Positions 1 through 32,525 of a DNA stretch of 32,525 nt are shown in pieces (within the stretch, counting starts at the first letter, position 1; each line of letters starts with the position of its first letter). Origin of the DNA: a virus. Lineage: Duplodnaviria > Heunggongvirae > Uroviricota > Caudoviricetes. The DNA is taken from the IMG/VR virus record IMGVR_UViG_651053023_000008. The stretch is one strand, 5' to 3'. Below the pieces are notes generated by a model. That model was not told the DNA's origin, did no database searches, and was given only the letters and a program-made list of their open reading frames with translations. The position numbers and the translations under genes were made by a program.

Positions 1-1698
1 TTAAGGTGTGGGTTGTGCCTCTTTGGTTGAGGGTTGCGTCGTTGCTGACTTAACGGTCGGACGCGTCGCCGGAACATTGTCACACGGTTGCTCTTTCGGG
101 CAGATCAAATCCAGCATTTTCAGCGTCACGCCATTGGTCCAGCCAAAGCCATCCTGTAATGGATATTCGCCACCGCCGCCCTCCGTTCCGGTGGTGCTGA
201 CATCATATTTTTCCACCAGCTTTTTCTCCCGGTCATAGGTGTGCTGAACATTGGTCAGGAAGTGCCAGCTAATGTCCATCGCCACCTCTTTTTGCCCGTA
301 GTTTTGTAATCCTTCTGTCGCGACCCACTGTAACGGTGCCCAGCCATTTGGCGCATCCCATTGTTGCCCACTTTTCACCGACGTGGTGTTCAGGCCGCCG
401 GGTTGCAGCAGATGTGTTTTCGTCGCCGTCGCCATTTTGTTGGCGCGATCTTTCGCTGCCGCATTGACGTACAGCGGGAACAGGGCGGCCGCGGTTAACT
501 GATTGCGCACTTTATGACTTTTCAGGTCGTAATCGGCATACCAGCCTTGTTGATCGTTCCACAGGTATTTTTCGATCCCTTTTTGACGGGCATTTGCCAG
601 CGTTTCGTACTGGTTTGCCATCGCGTTATCTCCGGCAGCTTTGCTGGCGCGGGCGAGGATTTTTTCCATTTTAAACATCAGGCTGTTCAGATCGACCGGT
701 ACGATGCTGGTGGTGCGTAAGGTATTTAACTGCTGCGGGTTGTCCATCCAGCGCGAGCTGAAATCCCAGCCAGACGCAGCGGCAGAGCGCAGGTCGCGGT
801 AAATTTCAGTGGCAGGTCGATTCGGATTGCTTTTGGCGGTGGCAATATCTTCCACCCATGACTCTGGTCGTGGCGTATCGCGATCGTCCCAGTAGCGGTT
901 GAGAAGGGTACCATCCTGAAGTTTGACAACGCGTTTTTCCTGTTGTCCGGCTTGCAGGTTTTCAACACCGTCCATCCAGTAAGCATATTCTTTTTGCATT
1001 TGCGGCAGGTATTGCTTCAACGCGGCATCGCCTTCATGCTGCGCCAGTAACTCTACCATCAGGGCAAAGAAGGGCGGTTGCGAGCGGCTTAAATAGTAAC
1101 TGCGGTTGCCGTTGGGAATATGACCGTAAGTGTCTATTTCATGAGCAAAATTGGCCACCATATTCGCGACTTTATCCCAGTGACCGCTTTCGGCAAGTCC
1201 TAACATGGTGAAGTAACTGTCCCAGTAATATACCTCGCGAAAGCGTCCGCCCGGCACGACATAAGGTTCCGGCAGCGGTAACAGAGAATCCCATTTTTCG
1301 GTGTTTTCGGTAGAACGCGTTAATACCGGCCAAAGTCCGTCAATATGTTCGCGCAGTGACTGCCCCTCTGGCGGAACATATTTCTCGCCTTCTTTCGGCA
1401 GGGTGAAATTGACGTTAACGAAATGGCGCAGATCAAATCCGCTCTGGTTTTGCTGCATCCGATAATCAGCAAGGATCATCAGCGGATCGCTGTTCGGCAC
1501 GGCATCGGCAAAGGTTTTTTGGTCCGGAAAAAGTTTGGCGTTTTGCACATCATTAAACAGCGGCCCTAATAAAATATCAGGCGGCTGTGGTGTTACCGGT
1601 GTTTCTTCTGCCTGCACCGATAGCGCAGCGAAACACAAAAAGATACAGGCTGGAATTAACGCCATTTTTTGCGGGCGAGAAGGTGCGGGGGATTTCAT
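1..1698 (-). CDS. treA: periplasmic trehalase TreA (host gene)
   Basis: ORF 1..1701 (566 aa) with signal peptide ([20 protein letters not shown]) and family-37 trehalase length and sequence as I recall E. coli TreA. The first ORF codon is TTG per the sequence line; the second Met (ATG ending at 1698) is the likely start. Confidence 0.9.
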
Positions 1699-1826
1699 CA
1701 ATCATTCTCCTTTGGCGAAACCGAATAAAACGGTATTCAAGTATCAGAAAACCTTAGTTCAGGATCGCACTAGCTGCATGATCGAAATCTCATTCTGCGA
1801 ACTGTCAGGCATTTTAGAAAAGGGAA

Positions 1827-17884: not shown

Positions 17885-18847
17885 ATGCAACCGGAACTGC
17901 TGGCGCTGTGTTTTTCCCTGCCAGAACCCATCCCTGAGCTGACACCTGCTCAACTGCCGGAATGGCTTGAACTCGTCCCTGCGGGTGAGTTCACCGGGCG
18001 CGATGGCCGGACGTGGATTAACCGCAATCCGCATGAGGTGGTCACCCGCTCGTCCGACATCAAAATTCCGGTGGACATTGAACACGCCACCGAAATTAAA
18101 GGGCAACGCGGTGATGAAGCCCCGGCGTATGGCTGGGTGGAAGAACTGCGCGTGACGGACAGCGGCACCATTGAAGGCCGTGTTGTCTGGAGCGAGTACG
18201 CCCGGTGGATGCTGAGCGAACGCCGCTACCGCTATTACAGCCCGGCGTTTTTCTTTGACGCAGACGGTGTGGTGACGCGCCTGTCCAGCGTCGGGCTGAC
18301 CAACAAACCTAACCTGGACTTTCCTGCACTGAATACGGAGAAAAACCCGATGACAGTACCTGTGCAAATCACCGGCCTGCTTGGGCTGGCTGAATCTGCC
18401 ACGGTGGACGATACCGTGGCCGCCATTAAACAACTTCAGGAGAACGAACAGGTGGCGCTGAACCGCGCACAGACACCTGACCTGACGAAGTTTGTGCCGG
18501 TGGAAACCCACAATCTGGCACTGAACCGTGCCGAAACCGCAGAACAACGCCTTCAGCAACTGGAAGAGAAGGAAGCAGAAGCGCTTGTGGATGCGGCCAT
18601 CGAAGCCGGAAAAGTGGCCCCGGCAAACCGTGACATGTTCCTTGCCACCTGCCGCACGGAAGAAGGCCGCAAACAATTTGCGGAATACACCAAAGGTGCA
18701 CAGCCGCTGGTGAACAACGACAAGCCCAGCCAGGGCAAGGATAAACCCGCGCAGACACTGACCGACGCCGAACTGGCGATGTGCCACAGCATGGGTATTA
18801 CCGGGGAAGAGTTCCTCGCCGCTAAACCTAAACAGGAGAATAACTGA
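17885..18847 (+). CDS. I: head maturation protease and scaffold (Mu I family)
   Basis: 320 aa; N-terminal protease-like domain, C-terminal Ala/Glu/Gln-rich helical scaffold-like region; directly upstream of the major head gene. Confidence 0.8.
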   Translation: MQPELLALCFSLPEPIPELTPAQLPEWLELVPAGEFTGRDGRTWINRNPHEVVTRSSDIKIPVDIEHATEIKGQRGDEAPAYGWVEELRVTDSGTIEGRVVWSEYARWMLSERRYRYYSPAFFFDADGVVTRLSSVGLTNKPNLDFPALNTEKNPMTVPVQITGLLGLAESATVDDTVAAIKQLQENEQVALNRAQTPDLTKFVPVETHNLALNRAETAEQRLQQLEEKEAEALVDAAIEAGKVAPANRDMFLATCRTEEGRKQFAEYTKGAQPLVNNDKPSQGKDKPAQTLTDAELAMCHSMGITGEEFLAAKPKQENN

Positions 18848-19749
18848 TGGGAGCAGTCACTTCCGAAGTCCTTCACGCGCTGACCACCTGTCTGAGCGCC
18901 GCTTATACCCGTGGTCTGAGTGGTGTCACCCCACAATGGCAGCGCATCGCCTCTGAAATCCCGAGTTCGTCCGCTTCCAATACCTACGGCTGGATGAAAG
19001 ATTTACCGGAGATTAAGGAATGGGTCAGCGCCCGTCAGATGGCAACGCTGGACGGTTATGGTTACACCCTTGCGAACAAAACCTGGGAAAGTTCGATCCG
19101 CGTTAAACGCGAACACATTGAAGACGATCAGATTGGTCAGTACAGCATTATCGCTGAACGCTATGGCCGCCAGACGTCGGAGTTCCCGGACAAGCTGTGT
19201 TACCCCCTGCTGTGTGCCGGGTTTAACACCCTGTGTTTTGACGGTCAGAACTTCTTTGATGAAGACCACCCGCTGGGCGACGGCACCTGCAGCAACGTTG
19301 TCGGCACCCCGGCATCAGACCAGGGAGAACCGTGGTTCCTGATTGATGATTCTCAGGTACTGAAACCCATCATCTGGCAGACGCGACGCGCCTTTAAGTT
19401 TGAAGCCCTGGATGATCTGAACAGCGAGCACACCTTCAAGAATAACGAGTTCCTTTACGGGGTGGACGGTCGCTGCAATGCGGGCTTCGGCTTCTGGCAG
19501 ACCGCCGTCGGTTCCCGTGCGGCACTGACAGCGGAGAACTACGAGAAGGCCAGCAATCTGCTGCTGGGTATGAAGGCCACCAACGGTGAACCGCTGGGCA
19601 TCCGCCCGACCACCCTTGTGGTGGGGCCGAAAAACCGTGCAGCCGCGAAGCGCATCATTGACGCCATGCTGGTTAACGGCGGCGATTCCAACATCTGGTA
19701 CAAGGATGTGGACATCGTGGTCAGCCCGTTCATCACCACCCCGGCATAA
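18847..19749 (+). CDS. T: major head subunit (Mu T family)
   Basis: 300 aa, ATGA-coupled to I; matches the Mu-like major capsid protein family in length and position. Confidence 0.8.
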   Translation: MGAVTSEVLHALTTCLSAAYTRGLSGVTPQWQRIASEIPSSSASNTYGWMKDLPEIKEWVSARQMATLDGYGYTLANKTWESSIRVKREHIEDDQIGQYSIIAERYGRQTSEFPDKLCYPLLCAGFNTLCFDGQNFFDEDHPLGDGTCSNVVGTPASDQGEPWFLIDDSQVLKPIIWQTRRAFKFEALDDLNSEHTFKNNEFLYGVDGRCNAGFGFWQTAVGSRAALTAENYEKASNLLLGMKATNGEPLGIRPTTLVVGPKNRAAAKRIIDAMLVNGGDSNIWYKDVDIVVSPFITTPA

Positions 19750-19832
19750 CCCGTCATCCGTAATCTGTTGTAACCCGCAATGACTGGCTGATTAGCTGTA
19801 TCGGCACCAACCTGTCACCGCACCCGGCGTGG

Positions 19833-20426
19833 ATGTGGGCCGCGTCATACGGCGCAACGGCAGCGTATCACCTTGCCATTGACCCGGCGCGTCCGCTTCA
19901 GACGCTGGTCCTGACCGGCATTCTGCCGCCTGCGCGTAATGTTCGCTGGGATATGCCGGAACGTAACCTGCTGCTGCATGACGGCATTGCCACGCACATG
20001 GTGGACGCCGGGGATAACGTCTGCATAGAGCGTGAAATCACCATGTACCGGGTTAATCAGTACGGTGATGCGGATGTGTCGTACCTTGATGTGCAGTCAC
20101 CCGCCACGCTGGGCCGTATCCGTTACATCATCAAGAACCGTTTCACGAACCGTTATCCGCGCCACAAGCTGGCAGATGATGACGTGCTGGACTCACTGGA
20201 TGCCGGTCAGCCGGTGATGACGCCGAAGCTGTGCACCGCAGAGCTGCTGGATATCTGCCAGACCGAACTTATTCCTGCGGGCCTTGTGGAGAACTTCAGC
20301 GATTACAAGGACACGCTTCAGGTGACACGCGACAGCAGCGATAAAAACCGTCTGAACTTTATCTGTCACCCGAATCTGGTGAACCAGCTGCGTGTGCTGG
20401 CAGGCCTGATTCAGTTCAAGCTTTAA
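19833..20426 (+). CDS. hypothetical tail-region protein; possibly the C-terminal remnant of a contractile-sheath gene
   Basis: 197-aa ORF. The reading frame is open upstream to 19764 with no start codon and no ribosome-binding site before ATG 19833; it sits where the sheath gene would be in Mu. Confidence 0.4.
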   Translation: MWAASYGATAAYHLAIDPARPLQTLVLTGILPPARNVRWDMPERNLLLHDGIATHMVDAGDNVCIEREITMYRVNQYGDADVSYLDVQSPATLGRIRYIIKNRFTNRYPRHKLADDDVLDSLDAGQPVMTPKLCTAELLDICQTELIPAGLVENFSDYKDTLQVTRDSSDKNRLNFICHPNLVNQLRVLAGLIQFKL

Positions 20427-20435
20427 GGGGGCCGC

Positions 20436-20783
20436 ATGGCAAAAATTCTTGGCATGGCGACCATTCGCGTGAATGGCCGCGAAATTAAAACCGAGGGGAA
20501 ATCCACGCTGAATCCGGGCGGCTTCAGTCGCACCCAGCATATGGGCGGCGGCAAGGTCTGGGGTATCTCCAGCAAGATGGCCTCGCCGTCCATCAAGGTG
20601 ACCATTGCGGCGGCAGCGGATATGGACGTGATTGAAATCAGCAGCTGGGAAGACGTCACGGTGATGTTCTACGGCGACAACGGCCTGAACTACATGATGA
20701 CGGGTCCGCCACGGATAACCCGGCGGAGCTGGACGAGGATTCCGGCACCATCAGTGCGAACTTTATCGGTGAAAAATGCGTGA
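20436..20783 (+). CDS. tail tube protein (Mu M-like)
   Basis: 115 aa directly upstream of the chaperone and tape-measure genes. An alternative 3' end in another frame would stop at 20791. Confidence 0.55.
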   Translation: MAKILGMATIRVNGREIKTEGKSTLNPGGFSRTQHMGGGKVWGISSKMASPSIKVTIAAAADMDVIEISSWEDVTVMFYGDNGLNYMMTGPPRITRRSWTRIPAPSVRTLSVKNA

Positions 20784-20792
20784 AGGTGTGAC

Positions 20793-21288
20793 ATGGCTGA
20801 AATGGAATTTGAACTGAAACACGGGCTTCTGACCGGCAAAGGCACGGCAGATGAAACCCTGCATAAAACCGTGAAGCTGCGCGAACTGACCGCCAGTGAT
20901 GTGATTGATGCACAACTGGCCGCAGAACGCGTCGTCATGGGCGGGAACGGAAAGGCGGTGGCCTACTGCTCTGAAGTGCTGATGGGGCTGGAGATGATGC
21001 GCCGTCAGGTTGCGGCCATCGGCAGCATTCCCGGCCCGCTGGACATGAAACAGCTGCGAATGCTCCACCCGGCAGACCTTGAGCTTATCAGCACGAAAGC
21101 CGCTGCGCTGGATGACATGCTTGAGGAGGTGGCAACGCGGGGGCGAACTGATGCCGCTGGCGGCGGCACTGATGAACCTGCTGGTTAACCTGTCCCAGCG
21201 ATTCAGCATTCAGTACCTGGAACAGCTGCCCCTGCGGCAGCTGTTCCGCCTGATAAAGCAACTGGAGAAACAGCATGGCAACAGGTAA
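20793..21288 (+). CDS. tail assembly chaperone with a putative programmed frameshift (short product 20793-21188; extended product to 21288)
   Basis: Two overlapping frames; the second frame has no independent ribosome-binding site and ends at the tape-measure start. G5 run at 21139-21143. Confidence 0.6.
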
Positions 21289-23122
21289 CCGTCTCAGCAC
21301 GGAAATCATGATCAACCTTGCCGGGAACCTGACCGCCAAAGCCCGGCAATACGGCGCAAATATGTCGCAGTTCGCCCGGAATCATCAGAAGGCCATGCGC
21401 CTTGTCAAAGCCACAACGGAGGCCGCAGGACGCGGCCTTGATACGCTGGGTAACCGCTACACGGCGATGATTGCCGGGTTCGGTGGTGGTATGACCCTTA
21501 AAGGCCTGACAGATTTTGATGCACAAATCCGCCGTGCGGGTACAAATGCAAAACTGACCGATGAGCAGGTATCCCGTTTAAGAAAAAACATCCGGGAAAC
21601 AGCCAGAATGTCAGACATTCGCCTCAGTGCGCAGGTTTTACTGGAAGGCCAGGATGCACTGTATGGCCTGACAGGTAAGCCGGAATTTGTTGAAAAAAAT
21701 ATCCGCAATCAGGGGCTGGCCACGCAGGCATTCGGGACTGCGCCACAGGATGTCGCGGCACTGATGGCACAGATGTCCGAAAAACAGATTGAAGATCCTC
21801 AGGAAGTTGAAGACATGTTCGACCGCTTCTACCACCAGTTTTCCATTGGTTCGGTTGGTGTGGATCAACTGGCGCGCGTATCAGCAAAACTGTTTTCGAT
21901 TTATACCGGTGGTGGCAAAGAGGCGATGGCCCAGTTGGGGGCACTTGAGCAGATGCTGGCGAAAACAACCGGTTCTGCAGATGAAGCGGTAACCGCGCTG
22001 AACAGTATCTGGAGTGAAGTCACCCGAAAAGACAACATCAAGTTTCTGAAAAGAAACGGTGTTGATGTGCTTGATCCAGTCACAGGGAAACCCCGTCTGC
22101 CCTATGACGTGATCAGAGACGTTGTCAGGCGGGCAAAATTTAATGAGCAGAATTTGCAGGATGTTTTCGGGGACACCTCCATGCGGGGATTAAGGGCGCT
22201 GTCCAGTGAAGAAGCCCTTCAGTTAACAGAAAAAATGATTTACGCCCCGGTTGAATCCGGTGCCATGAAAAAAGCCGCGGAGAAAAACGCCCAGAGTTTT
22301 CAGTCTGCGATGCAGTCCCTGAAGAATGAATATGAGGTTTTTGCTGAAAAAAATCTGGCAAAACCCGTTCAGGACCTGGCGGATGCGCTCAACAGCGTGG
22401 ACCAGAACACCGTCCAGAACTGGTTGCAGGTCGGTAAATATATGGCGATTGCTGTGGGCGGCATTATCGCCATCCGAAAAACGTACCAGTTAGGTAAAAC
22501 CCTCCACGACATCATGAATCCCAAAGGGAAAGGCAAAGGAATACCCGGTGGCATTACAGATGTTTTCGGCTCCGGTGTGATGCCGGTTTATGTGGTTAAT
22601 ATGGGCAGTGGCGGGATGAATGGTAATACCGGCGGTCTGCCGGATACACCAGATTCATCGCGCAATCCCCGCAATCCTCGGGGGCCGGGTAACCGTGGAG
22701 GAAAGGCAGGTAAAGGCGCTGGCATCATTGCCGGTGCTCTGGAGTTTTACGATTTTCTGACCACACAATACGCCCTGCCGGGTGAGGTTGACAGTCTCAC
22801 TAAATCCGTTGCCGGTGATGCCAGCGCCAGCCCGCGGGAGCGCGAGTTCGCGCAACAGAGTCAGGACAACCAGAAAGCGCTCGAGTCCGTCTGGCGTAAG
22901 GTAACGGACTGGTTTGACTCGCTGAACGGGAAGAACATCGGCGGGATGCCGTCATGGGGTGGAATGCAACCCTCGCAGCTTGCACCGTTTCTTTCTCAAC
23001 AATTGCAGGGGGAAATCCGCGTGGTGGTGGAAGGTGACGCCCGCGTGAAAAGTGTCAGAGTGGATCAACCCGGCGTCAGACTCAGTGCGCAGGCTGGCGT
23101 CACCAGCGTGGAGCAAGGGTAA
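21275..23122 (+). CDS. tail tape measure protein
   Basis: 615 aa; helical with a Gly-rich hydrophobic segment; preceded by the frameshifted chaperone. Confidence 0.75.
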   Translation: MATGNRLSTEIMINLAGNLTAKARQYGANMSQFARNHQKAMRLVKATTEAAGRGLDTLGNRYTAMIAGFGGGMTLKGLTDFDAQIRRAGTNAKLTDEQVSRLRKNIRETARMSDIRLSAQVLLEGQDALYGLTGKPEFVEKNIRNQGLATQAFGTAPQDVAALMAQMSEKQIEDPQEVEDMFDRFYHQFSIGSVGVDQLARVSAKLFSIYTGGGKEAMAQLGALEQMLAKTTGSADEAVTALNSIWSEVTRKDNIKFLKRNGVDVLDPVTGKPRLPYDVIRDVVRRAKFNEQNLQDVFGDTSMRGLRALSSEEALQLTEKMIYAPVESGAMKKAAEKNAQSFQSAMQSLKNEYEVFAEKNLAKPVQDLADALNSVDQNTVQNWLQVGKYMAIAVGGIIAIRKTYQLGKTLHDIMNPKGKGKGIPGGITDVFGSGVMPVYVVNMGSGGMNGNTGGLPDTPDSSRNPRNPRGPGNRGGKAGKGAGIIAGALEFYDFLTTQYALPGEVDSLTKSVAGDASASPREREFAQQSQDNQKALESVWRKVTDWFDSLNGKNIGGMPSWGGMQPSQLAPFLSQQLQGEIRVVVEGDARVKSVRVDQPGVRLSAQAGVTSVEQG

Positions 23123-24396
23123 TGACAACAGGCAATGGCAAATGGGACGGGCTGCGCGACGCCTCGTTTCGCGGCGTTCCCTTCTTTCTGGTGGATACAG
23201 AAGGCACCGGTGGCCGCAGGGCTATTCCCCGTGCTTACCCCCGGCGTGAAACCGCCTGGACGGATGATAACGGGGCCGTTCCCGGTCAACAACAGATTAA
23301 CGCAAAGCTGCCAGGTAAAAACTTCCGGGATGATTTAAACGCCCTTTTAGACGCGCTCAATACCCCAGGCCCCGGCGAGCTTATCCACCCGTGGTTCGGG
23401 ATACAGACCGTACAGGTTGGCAAGGTCACTCATCGCCTCAGCACGGAGGAAGACGGCATTGCGTATGTCACCTTTGAAGTGTTTGAGGCAGGCGAGCGCC
23501 TGTTCCCGTCTGCGGCGGATAACACGCAGCAGGAAGTGCTAACGGGCATTGATGCGGTGAAAGCCGCCATTGACGATGGCGACTGGTTCGGCGCACTCGA
23601 CGGGCTGGGTGAGATGGCCGACAGCTTTCTGGCCGATATGGAAAACCTTGTGGCTAACCTGCCCACGCTACCGGCAGCACTGAATCAGTGGATGGACAGG
23701 CTGAACCATTTTAAGGAGATGGCCGGAACCATCATTGCCACGCCGGGGCGTCTGGTCAGTGAGTTGTCCTCGTTCATCGACGGCGTGGTTGATCTGGTGA
23801 CGGAACCACCCGAAGCACTCGCGGTTTACACGACATTACGCAACCAGTGGGTCGGAGAACGCGCCCGACAGGTTGCCACCGGCGCACTGCCGGAAGATAT
23901 CACCGTGAAGCCAGGCAGCGTGGCAGACGGCGAAATCGGCTTTGCCATCGGTCTGTCACCGGGTTATCAGCCGGTATCTGACAGCCTGCAAAAGAACATT
24001 GATGACTTCCGCCAGGTGGTTGTGCTGGAAACCCTGCTGGGACAGGCAAATGCCGTGGCCTCGATGACGTTCGATACCAGTGATGCGGCATTATCTGCTG
24101 GTGACACGCTGGCGGCTGAACTGCATGAGCAGGCGGTGGCGGCGGTGGAAAATAACCAGCGGGCATTATGGCGAACGCTGCGCGATTTACGGCAGGCCGT
24201 GATTACGGATGCCCGCGAGCGTGCCGCCCGTCTGCCGGAAACCCGACAGGTGACGCTGACCACAACCACATCTGCCGCATTGCTGGCATGGCGCGAACAT
24301 GGTGACACAAGCCGACGGGATGAAATCGTGCAGCGTAACCGCCTGCGCCATCCGTCATTCATCCTGCCAACGCAACCAGTGGAGATTACCGACTGA
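23122..24396 (+). CDS. P: DNA circularisation protein-like tail protein (Mu P family)
   Basis: 424 aa; N-terminal region resembles the Mu gp43 N-terminal domain; position after the tape measure. Confidence 0.65.
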   Translation: MTTGNGKWDGLRDASFRGVPFFLVDTEGTGGRRAIPRAYPRRETAWTDDNGAVPGQQQINAKLPGKNFRDDLNALLDALNTPGPGELIHPWFGIQTVQVGKVTHRLSTEEDGIAYVTFEVFEAGERLFPSAADNTQQEVLTGIDAVKAAIDDGDWFGALDGLGEMADSFLADMENLVANLPTLPAALNQWMDRLNHFKEMAGTIIATPGRLVSELSSFIDGVVDLVTEPPEALAVYTTLRNQWVGERARQVATGALPEDITVKPGSVADGEIGFAIGLSPGYQPVSDSLQKNIDDFRQVVVLETLLGQANAVASMTFDTSDAALSAGDTLAAELHEQAVAAVENNQRALWRTLRDLRQAVITDARERAARLPETRQVTLTTTTSAALLAWREHGDTSRRDEIVQRNRLRHPSFILPTQPVEITD

Positions 24397-25467
24397 TGGA
24401 ATCCGTGATTCTTACCGTTGACGGCAAATTGTGGGAAGGCTGGACGGAAATGTCCGTCAGCCGTTCCCTGAAGGCGATTGCCGGTGAGTTTGATCTCAGT
24501 GTGACAACCCGCTGGTCAGCGGCGGCACCGCGCGTGATACGTGAGGGGCAACCCTGCACGGTCAGGCTGGGTGCGGATACCGTGCTGACAGGGTATATCG
24601 ATGATTTTATCCCCAGCTATGACGCAGATAACGTGGAGATTCGCGTCATGGGGCGCGACAAAAACCGGCGACCTGGTGGACTGCTCTGTGGTGCATTCAT
24701 CCGGGAAATGGAAAGGCGTGCGGCTGGAACAGGTAGCGGCTGATGTCTGCCGCCCGTTCGGGATAGCCGTCATCACGGAAACCCCGACCGGGGAGGCGTT
24801 TGCGTCCGTTGTTCTGGAACAGGGTGAAACGGGCTTTGAACTGCTCGACCGGCTGGCAAAACAGCGCGGCGTTCTGCTGACGTCTGACGGCGCAGGTAAC
24901 CTGATTATCACCCGCGCCTCTTCCGTTCGCGCGGGCGTGTCACTGGTGCTGGGGAAAAATATCCTCGCCGCCCGTGGGCGCTTCAGCTGGCGGGAGCGTA
25001 ACAGCCAGTACATCATCAAGGGCACCACCAGTGCCGGTGGCAAACTGTGGGACAGCCAGCCTGCCTCGATGGTGGGTGGTCGCCAGTACATCACCGAAGA
25101 CCCGGAAATTAACCGTTACCGCCCGCGCATTCTGGTCAATGAAGACAGCCTGACCGTGGGCGGGGCCAGCATTCGCGGGGAATGGTACAAAGCCCGGATG
25201 CTGGGGGAATCCCGCACGACGGAAATCACGGTGGCAGGCTGGCGCGAACAGGGCGACAGCGGCCCGCTGTGGCAGACCAACCGCCTTGTCGATATCGACG
25301 ACAGCATTCAGAACCTGAAAACCACCTGGCTGATATCCGGGGTGACCTGGACGGATGGCGCACAGGGGCGGATGACGGTTCTGGCGCTGGTTCCGCCTGA
25401 ATCACTGGATATGCCGGAAATGAAAGCGAAGACGAAGAAAACAAAGGCGGTGGCCACATGGGATTAA
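24396..25467 (+). pseudogene. baseplate hub protein (Mu Q-like) with a +1 frameshift in an A5 run (24660-24664)
   Basis: ORFs 24396..24743 and 24601..25467 join into one 357-aa product (..VMGRDKTGDLVDCSVV..) if one A is removed. Confidence 0.6.
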
Positions 25468-31693: not shown

Positions 31694-31879
31694 ATGGACT
31701 CTGTTCGCTGTAAAAACTGCAATAAATTACTGTTTAAAGGAGGTTTTAAGCATATAGAAATTAAATGCCCTCGCTGTAAACGTTACATTGTCATATCGAA
31801 TGCCAAAGAGCATCCCACGGAGCTGTATTGTGGGAAAAGAGAAGAAATCACGCATTCTGACAAAACCCTGCGTTATTGA
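31694..31879 (+). CDS. com: Com zinc-finger translational activator of mom
   Basis: 61 aa from ATG 31694 (AGGGGGA ribosome-binding site); CKNC...x16...CPRC zinc finger; overlaps the mom start. Confidence 0.85.
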
Positions 31880-32525
31880 GTATGAAGGTCGTATTGTCGG
31901 CTATGGTTCAAAGGAGCTACGTGTTGAAACCATATCCTGCTGGCTGGCCCGCACAATCATTCAGACAAAACACTATTCCCGCCGTTTTGTGAATAACTCC
32001 TACCTGCATCTTGGCGTATTCAGCGGACGTGATCTGGTTGGCGTTCTTCAGTGGGGATATGCCCTTAACCCCAACTCAGGGCGTCGGGTCGTGCTTGAAA
32101 CGGATAACCGGGGCTATATGGAACTGAACCGCATGTGGCTACACGACGACATGCCCCGCAACTCTGAATCACGGGCTATCAGCTACGCGCTGAAAGTTAT
32201 CAGGTTACTGTATCCGTCAGTTGAGTGGGTTCAGTCTTTTGCAGACGAACGCTGCGGACGTGCTGGCGTGGTATATCAGGCGTCGAATTTTGATTTTATT
32301 GGTAGCCATGAAAGCACGTTCTACGAGCTGGACGGCGAGTGGTATCACGAGATAGCGATGAACGCGATTAAGCGCGGAGGGCAACGAGGCGAGTATTTGC
32401 GGGCTAATAAGGAGCGGGCCGTGGTACACAAATTTAATCAGTATCGCTACATCAGGTTCCTGAACAAGCGCGCAAAAAAGCGCCTAAACACCAAGCTATT
32501 CAGGATTCAGCCATACCCGAAGTGA
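31800..32525 (+). CDS. mom: Mom DNA modification protein
   Basis: ORF overlapping the 3' end of com and ending at the window edge; sequence matches Mu Mom as I recall it. Start uncertain (ATG 31800 or GTG 31830). Confidence 0.85.

Follow-up and report, generated by a model that had tools for sequence, protein, structure and literature searches.

Bacteriophage Mu produces two forms of its tail assembly chaperone, gp41 and the longer FS-gp41 (Mu_41/Mu_56), and a -2 programmed frameshift linking the two was reportedly described by Xu, Hendrix and Duda in 2004, a report known here through a GenBank note and two reviews. The GenBank note, attached to Mu_56 in record AF083977, reads 'tail assembly chaperone frameshift product; verified -2 translational frameshift in PMID 15469818'. 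Slippage at the Mu site, GG GGG CGA, has been described as a tandem -2 event, the -2 frame offering the A-site tRNA-Arg (anticodon 3'-GCI-5') a better contact after slippage than the -1 frame would (PMC3458567), and Mu is listed among the few -2 frameshifts known (PMC5009743). The general plan of such loci, with an N-terminal domain shared by both products, overlapping frames ahead of the tape measure gene and a longer form that is the minority product, is also that of lambda gpG/gpGT and P2 E / E+E' (PMC5009743), and the locus analysed here follows the same logic. The lambda shift is, however, a -1 shift on the heptamer G_GGA_AAG, whereas the locus analysed here does not fit the pattern of an X_XXY_YYZ heptamer with the second ORF in the -1 frame: its second ORF is in the +1/-2 frame, and the -1 frame presents a TGA after three codons.

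The window, that is, the whole 32,525-nucleotide stretch of DNA analysed, is a Mu-like prophage adjoining a trehalase gene; it carries genes for a Mu-type repressor, transposases A and B, a terminase, a portal, a protease, the major head protein gpT, a DNA circularisation protein, baseplate proteins, tail fibres and Mom. The right end of the window (31788-32525) falls inside a Mom-family gene. Close relatives of the prophage, at 94-98% identity, occur in 48 of 5426 complete E. coli genomes. In its tail module, the gene order from tube through chaperone to tape measure is common to the window and Mu (Table 1). The first open reading frame of the locus, ORF1, matches the Pfam family Gp41_Mu (PF23746), to which Mu gp41 belongs, (E 4.4e-37; 126.9 bits, the cutoff being 27); it also matches Phage_TAC_7 (E 1.5e-7) and PHROG 508, 'tail assembly chaperone' (E 4e-37), and a 97%-identical protein is named 'phage tail assembly protein' in RefSeq. 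When compared with Mu by tblastn, it aligns at 48% identity (E 1e-15). These sequence matches identify ORF1 as a homologue of Mu gp41, from which it differs in that the N-terminus is longer in Mu (144 versus 131 aa) and the zero-frame tail is longer in the window. Homologues of the gene that follows are annotated as tape measure in the same position in Mu, SfMu, Vibrio phage martha, Shewanella phage MuM16-2 and E. coli RefSeq records; NCBIfam holds no model matching either the tape measure protein or the predicted fusion described below.

Table 1. Coordinates of the features discussed, numbered from the first letter of the window.
Feature	Position	Strand	Remarks
Trehalase gene, left flank	1-1701	-	Pfam Trehalase, E 1e-179
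Tail tube gene	20436..20791	+	directly 5' of ORF1; Pfam Tail_tube, positions 1-90 of 117 only
ORF1, gp41-type tail assembly chaperone (zero-frame product)	20793..21188	+	ATG 20793, TAA 21186-21188, 131 aa
Second frame, offset +1 (= -2) relative to ORF1	stop-free 21049 to TAA 21286-21288	+	from the ORF listing
SD-like GGAGG, candidate stimulator	21125..21129	+	11 nt 5' of the P-site GGG codon
Slippery site C_GG_GGG_CGA	21138..21146	+	9-mer identical to the Mu site
G5 run	21139-21143		
-2-frame extension, G/R + ELMPLAAALMNLLVNLSQRFSIQYLEQLPLRQLFRLIKQLEKQHGNR	21142..21288	+	predicted; stop TAA 21286-21288
Small hairpin, core GCCG 21153-21156 / CGGC 21164-21167	21152..21168	+	predicted; 5 nt after CGA
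GGAG, ribosome-binding site of the tape measure gene	21264-21267		
Tape measure protein gene	21275..23122	+	ATG 21275, 615 aa; homologues in the same position annotated tape measure

Near its 3' end, ORF1 overlaps a second frame that runs on to the tape measure gene, with a 14-nt overlap between the tape measure ORF and the end of the second frame. ORF1 starts at 0 mod 3 and the second frame lies at 1 mod 3, and the two can be joined by a +1 or a -2 shift only; a -1 shift would read GGG GCG AAC and then stop at TGA 21149-21151. The first-pass annotation had placed the ORF1 stop at 21188, the end of the open frame at 21288 by the tape-measure start, and a run of five Gs at 21139-21143 as the point of passage between frames, all of which agree with the ORF listing, and its statement that a -2 or +1 shift is needed agrees with the phases of the frames.

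The G5 run belongs to an octamer, GGGGGCGA, at 21139-21146, in phase 1 and close to the ORF1 3' end, where the zero-frame codons are CGG (21138), GGG (21141) and CGA (21144). In Mu the surrounding sequence is ...CAA GAA CGG GGG CGA GTG..., and the window 9-mer CGGGGGCGA recurs there at 1549-1557 of the Mu locus (L002), in the same phase and at the same position in the gene, the octamer occupying L002 1550-1557. On its own, the window offers little statistical weight: the octamer occurs once in it against 1.57 occurrences expected, and stop-free stretches of 49 codons are met in the +1 frame of the window's own genes at 13% of positions, so that the octamer together with the open frame is not significant from the window alone. 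The significance of the signal lies in its recurrence, because the same octamer, phase and open frame are present in 122/122 of the related loci analysed. Taken with the gp41 homology, the identity of the site with that of Mu and the annotation of the latter as a verified -2 shift, this conservation sustains the earlier proposal of a programmed frameshift at the chaperone G run, in which -2 had been favoured over +1. The locus very probably carries a Mu-type -2 frameshift signal (GG_GGG_CGA), from which a shorter and a longer version of the chaperone would be made. That the shift would be ribosomal and of two bases backwards is carried over from the Mu literature, by analogy with a protein 37-48% identical.

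The comparison draws on 129 loci collected from annotated phages, GTDB (one genome per species) and IMG/VR; seven broken or fused loci and one contig fragment were set aside, and the 122 loci analysed reduce to 109 distinct sequences. A comparison with other Mu-like phages had been suggested as a check on the frameshift, and it shows GGGGGCGA conserved in phase at every one of the 122 loci, with the new frame open for 100-142 nt past the ORF1 stop. The hosts are gammaproteobacteria, among them Escherichia, Klebsiella, Serratia, Brenneria, Vibrio, Aeromonas, Shewanella, Marinomonas, Rheinheimera, Endozoicomonas and Haemophilus felis, together with Bilophila. While the flanking codons are free to vary, with 20 kinds upstream and 13 downstream, the octamer is invariant, and by this conservation the Mu signal is an octamer common to phages of distant hosts. 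The same survey bears on the question as to whether the chaperone is really a single open reading frame, the G5 run being a miscall or an inactivating mutation. Two single-base indels in the window, one in the tube gene (20705) and one in a baseplate gene (24660), lend this reading some colour. It is nevertheless the least credible of the explanations considered, and can practically be dismissed: five Gs are found in 122 independent loci, Mu itself among them, whereas the fused state with four Gs is rare (3/129 loci), and some of its carriers are, judging by contig names, apparently long-read assemblies.

The four-G alleles deserve a description of their own. The sequence GGGGCGA, in place of GGGGGCGA, is found at position 1832 of L038, L046 and L047 and is represented by the proteins P0001, P0069 and P0074. 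Its carriers are Marinomonas rhodophyticola, Kluyvera genomosp. 3, Erwinia tracheiphila and some Logan contigs, and in all of them chaperone and extension are fused (...RG-E/D...). They may reflect miscalled homopolymers in sequencing, or they may be natural alleles that make the fusion only.

Codon choice at the site is strongly biased. In the 109 sequences the Arg codon preceding GGG is CGG in 101 and AGG in 8, two codons that account for 15% of Arg codons elsewhere in ORF1; the Gly codon is GGG in 109/109, against a share of 17.6% among Gly codons elsewhere in ORF1; and the Arg codon that follows is CGA in 109/109, against 7.6%. The site is thus built entirely of rare codons: CGG or AGG, GGG and CGA. 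The alternation between CGG and AGG retains the two upstream Gs, which are needed solely by a two-base backward re-pairing, and this favours a -2 over a +1 shift. In the latter, the P-site Gly-tRNA would move from GGG 21141-21143 to GGC 21142-21144 while the poorly decoded CGA waits in the A site, giving a product of 164 aa (...TRG-ELMPL...) without the extra residue at the junction and with the junction peptide GELMPLAAALMNLLVNLSQR. Such a shift is permitted by the frame arithmetic, the rarity of CGA in these genes would suit it, and the four-G alleles (L038, L046, L047, P0001, P0069) encode exactly this product as an in-frame fusion; it is nonetheless improbable, since it has no need of the upstream GG that is kept in 109/109 sequences and since both the annotation of the Mu site and the reviews give it as -2 (AF083977, PMC3458567, PMC5009743). 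The arrangement around the site also differs from that of prfB-type +1 frameshifting, in that the A-site codon is a sense codon, CGA, and 11 nt separate the end of the SD-like element from the P-site codon, a spacing that favours backward slippage. In the prfB type, a stop or hungry codon occupies the A site and the SD lies about 3 nt 5' of the shift codon.

Relatives also delimit where the change of frame would take place. Eight loci have a stop in the new frame 6 nt 5' of the G run, among them L054, whose chaperone protein is 98% identical to that of the window, and in Vibrio-type loci ORF1 terminates one codon past CGA; these stops leave room for the shift only within about 17 nt, from 6 nt upstream to 3 nt downstream of the octamer. 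The zero-frame tail after CGA is 1 to 13 codons long among the relatives, which suggests that its sequence is unconstrained.

The extension, by comparison, has the properties of a protein-coding sequence. The predicted fusion is 165 aa long, with a C-terminal extension of 47-48 residues whose first 47 nt overlap the apparently dispensable ORF1 tail. The relatives provide 69 distinct extension peptides, which can be aligned between the junction, G-[ED]-L/W..., and a conserved motif, LPLRxL(L/F)R, present in Mu as SLPLSRFFRH. For sequence pairs with 80-90% DNA identity, positions 1, 2 and 3 of the new-frame codons show substitution rates of 0.142, 0.054 and 0.267, a pattern which indicates that the extension frame is under coding constraint. 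The first-pass annotation had held that lack of conservation of the downstream frame in relatives would speak against a frameshift; the extension is conserved, and conserved as a protein. It matches PHROG 38797, 'unknown function' (E 5e-34), and by BLASTP the window fusion aligns with Mu FS-gp41 over both of its parts, at 37% identity (E 8e-24); as in Mu, the homologous extension carries an LPL(R/S)xxFR motif and reaches the tape-measure start. For P0001, a naturally fused allele, AlphaFold gives a model of mean pLDDT 86.7 in which the extension is predicted to be helical (pLDDT 66-80). When this model was compared with viral models, the best match was again Mu FS-gp41 (E 1.2e-12, 165 columns), and the weaker matches, to other phage tail assembly chaperones, had E values of 1e-2 to 1e-1 and are suggestive only. 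The PDB yielded no meaningful match either by sequence profile or by fold.

These data also weigh on the alternative that there is no recoding at all, the second frame being a separate small gene or a non-coding spacer open by chance. The extension frame does have stand-alone calls, in PHROG 38797 and as 'gp42' of D108 (48 aa), and an open stretch of 49 codons would arise by chance in the window with a probability of about 0.13. Yet a spacer is excluded by the coding substitution pattern, and a separate gene lacks a conserved start codon: the SD-like element stands 21 nt from the sole nearby ATG (21151), and other clades are without that ATG. Moreover, the stop that closes the frame in eight relatives lies 6 nt 5' of the G run, and it is exactly at the run that conservation starts (G-[ED]-L...). 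With this evidence against it, the absence of recoding is very improbable.

In the preferred reading, a -2 shift on the Mu-type site, most ribosomes would read ORF1 through to the TAA ending at 21188 and release the 131-aa gp41-like chaperone, while a minority would pause, Gly-tRNA occupying the P site at GGG 21141-21143 and the A site presenting CGA 21144-21146. A slip of two bases backwards would bring Gly-tRNA onto GGG 21139-21141 with perfect pairing. If the slippage is tandem, Arg-tRNA(ICG) would at the same time re-pair with GGC 21142-21144 at 2/3 positions, as compared with 0/3 for GCG in the -1 frame. Reading would resume at GAA 21145 and continue to the TAA ending at 21288, producing the 165-aa fusion with its mainly helical extension. 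By analogy with lambda gpG/gpGT, the N-domain common to both forms may serve as a coat for the tape measure protein, while the extension may recruit the tube subunit, the ratio of chaperone to fusion being set by the efficiency of frameshifting; for Mu-type proteins, we infer this chaperone mechanism from the lambda case.

The residue at the junction depends on the version of the -2 slip. A tandem slip would give ...EEVATRG-R-ELMPLAAAL... (165 aa), in which the junction peptide ELMPLAAALMNLLVNLSQR is preceded by GR. A slip of the P-site tRNA only, before CGA is decoded, would insert Gly (GGC) as the extra residue, giving ...TRG-G-ELM..., likewise of 165 aa, with the junction peptide GGELMPLAAALMNLLVNLSQR. 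The Mu records differ on this point: GenBank UIW09302.1 (P0067) has Arg (...ERG-R-EWL...), whereas UniProt P0DJY4 (P0068) has Gly (...ERG-G-EWL...). The re-pairing of Gly-tRNA from GGG to GGG, as first proposed for the window, fits the -2 shift of Mu, whereas the Gly that had been proposed with it at the junction matches P0DJY4 but not the GenBank Mu sequence. There is a slight lean towards Arg, because the slippage has been described as tandem (PMC3458567) and because the GenBank Mu record with the 'verified -2' note has Arg. UniProt labels the Mu frameshift product 'probable'.

A homopolymer at the point of passage raises the question as to whether RNA polymerase, rather than the ribosome, slips there, dropping one G or adding two in the G5 run so that the edited mRNA encodes the fusion. 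Variants with four Gs exist in several assemblies, where the run length changes at the level of the DNA or of sequencing. Known bacterial transcriptional slippage sites, for their part, are runs of about seven or more A or T. The treatment of such sites in PMC5009743 is in line with this, and the run here differs from them in being a short run of five Gs. In addition, that CGA never varies and that the codon phase is strictly kept in 122/122 loci are features of a ribosomal signal and not of a polymerase signal, which leaves transcriptional slippage with only a very small probability. 

Ribosomal -2 slippage at the octamer may be assisted by neighbouring elements, of which two were considered. 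The first is the SD-like GGAG(G) element upstream of the site. GGAG starts at -14 from the G run in 60/82 non-redundant contexts, compared with 0.46% per position elsewhere in ORF1. The Glu codon within the element is GAG in 50/50 cases, against 48.6% elsewhere, and the codon before that Glu ends in G in 48/50, across eight different amino acids; TCG is used nine times in this position, whereas G-ending codons make up 9% of Ser codons elsewhere. Such a pattern at synonymous sites indicates that the element is constrained at the nucleotide level. It is absent from Mu, SfMu and Kluyvera-type loci, Mu lacking the GGAG(G) 14 nt upstream as well as the downstream GC hairpin of the window clade, and because of these absences the element can be at most a modulator. 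RBS-like motifs have a general role in backward shifts (PMC10885494). The GGAGG found here 11 nt before the P-site codon has the spacing of the SD stimulator upstream of the E. coli dnaX frameshift. The dnaX shift differs in being -1 and not -2, and the locus here has no supported strong downstream stem-loop; Mu, for its part, manages without an SD-like element. In dnaX, AGGGAG is followed by 10 nt and then by A_AAA_AAG. Sequence conservation makes it conceivable, though with slightly less than even likelihood, that GGAG(G), ending 11-12 nt before the P-site codon, acts as a dnaX-like anti-SD stimulator that tunes this rare -2 shift and is kept by selection. Were this the case, no such stimulator would have been described before for a bacterial -2 frameshift, and differences between lineages in the ratio of chaperone to fusion would have an explanation. 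The literature searched contained nothing specific on stimulators of the Mu frameshift.

The second candidate, the small hairpin downstream of CGA, was rejected as an unsupported stimulator. It is kept in the enteric clade only, Mu and Vibrio-type loci having no equivalent; pair counts on 39 sequences gave no covariation beyond that of shuffles, and the hairpin folds no better than shuffled sequence (fold z-score -1.16). A scan of 20700-21400 with Rfam found no family, the only match (Erse, 12 bits against a gathering score of 138) being a chance one.

In current annotation the fusion is nearly invisible. When 5.8 billion proteins were searched with the predicted fusion, almost all matches were ORF1 products of 127-131 aa, named 'phage tail assembly protein' or 'FluMu protein gp41', and the two fused exceptions both came from frame-disrupted contigs. 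RefSeq leaves the extension unannotated in the window clade, and the fusion, annotated in Mu, is absent there; PHROG 38797 is the extension called as a separate ORF. The mechanism as such has been in the literature since 2004; what is newly recognised is the fusion in the window clade, which was previously unannotated. RefSeq and most phage records of the clade list only the 127-131-aa chaperone, and the stretch of about 90 nt before the tape measure gene now stands as unannotated sequence or as a hypothetical ORF; the 165-aa fusion merits a -2 join. Frameshifts of -2 are very rare, and since PRFect and similar tools omit them, the invariant octamer would be useful for their automatic detection.

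For the window itself the importance of the signal is small, as its tail module is already broken. Unlike the Mu gene, the window copy lies in a prophage with several lesions, which were called by comparison with the intact STEC346 prophage (L001). The first is a deletion of 2941 bp with a 14-nt microhomology junction at 19766-19779 (compare L001 2266-5220); it removes everything from just past gpT to about codon 270 of the sheath gene, leaving a sheath ORF (19833-20426) that represents the C-terminal 197 aa only. No complete E. coli genome among those searched has this junction. The second is a 1-nt deletion at 20705 (GGGTTCC to GGGTCC), which puts the last 28 or so tube codons out of frame. 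The third, a 1-nt insertion (A) at 24660, splits a gpP-like baseplate gene, a single 1071-nt CDS in STEC346, into ORFs at 24396-24743 and 24601-25467. The lesions spare the chaperone, the slip site, the extension and the tape measure gene, all of them intact in the window.

Either the prophage is defective or the assembly contains indel errors. Because the sheath, tube and baseplate genes are broken, the fusion could not serve in building tails here, unless these lesions are errors of assembly; with the same proviso, the prophage cannot build tails and its frameshift signal is probably a well-preserved relic. In the otherwise intact STEC346 prophage (L001 386-2249), the protease and major head genes are annotated as frameshifted pseudogenes, whereas the window carries an intact protease gene (17885-18847) and an intact major head gene (18847-19749). 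As the pseudogenes differ between STEC346 and the window, copies of this prophage family appear to decay in different genes.
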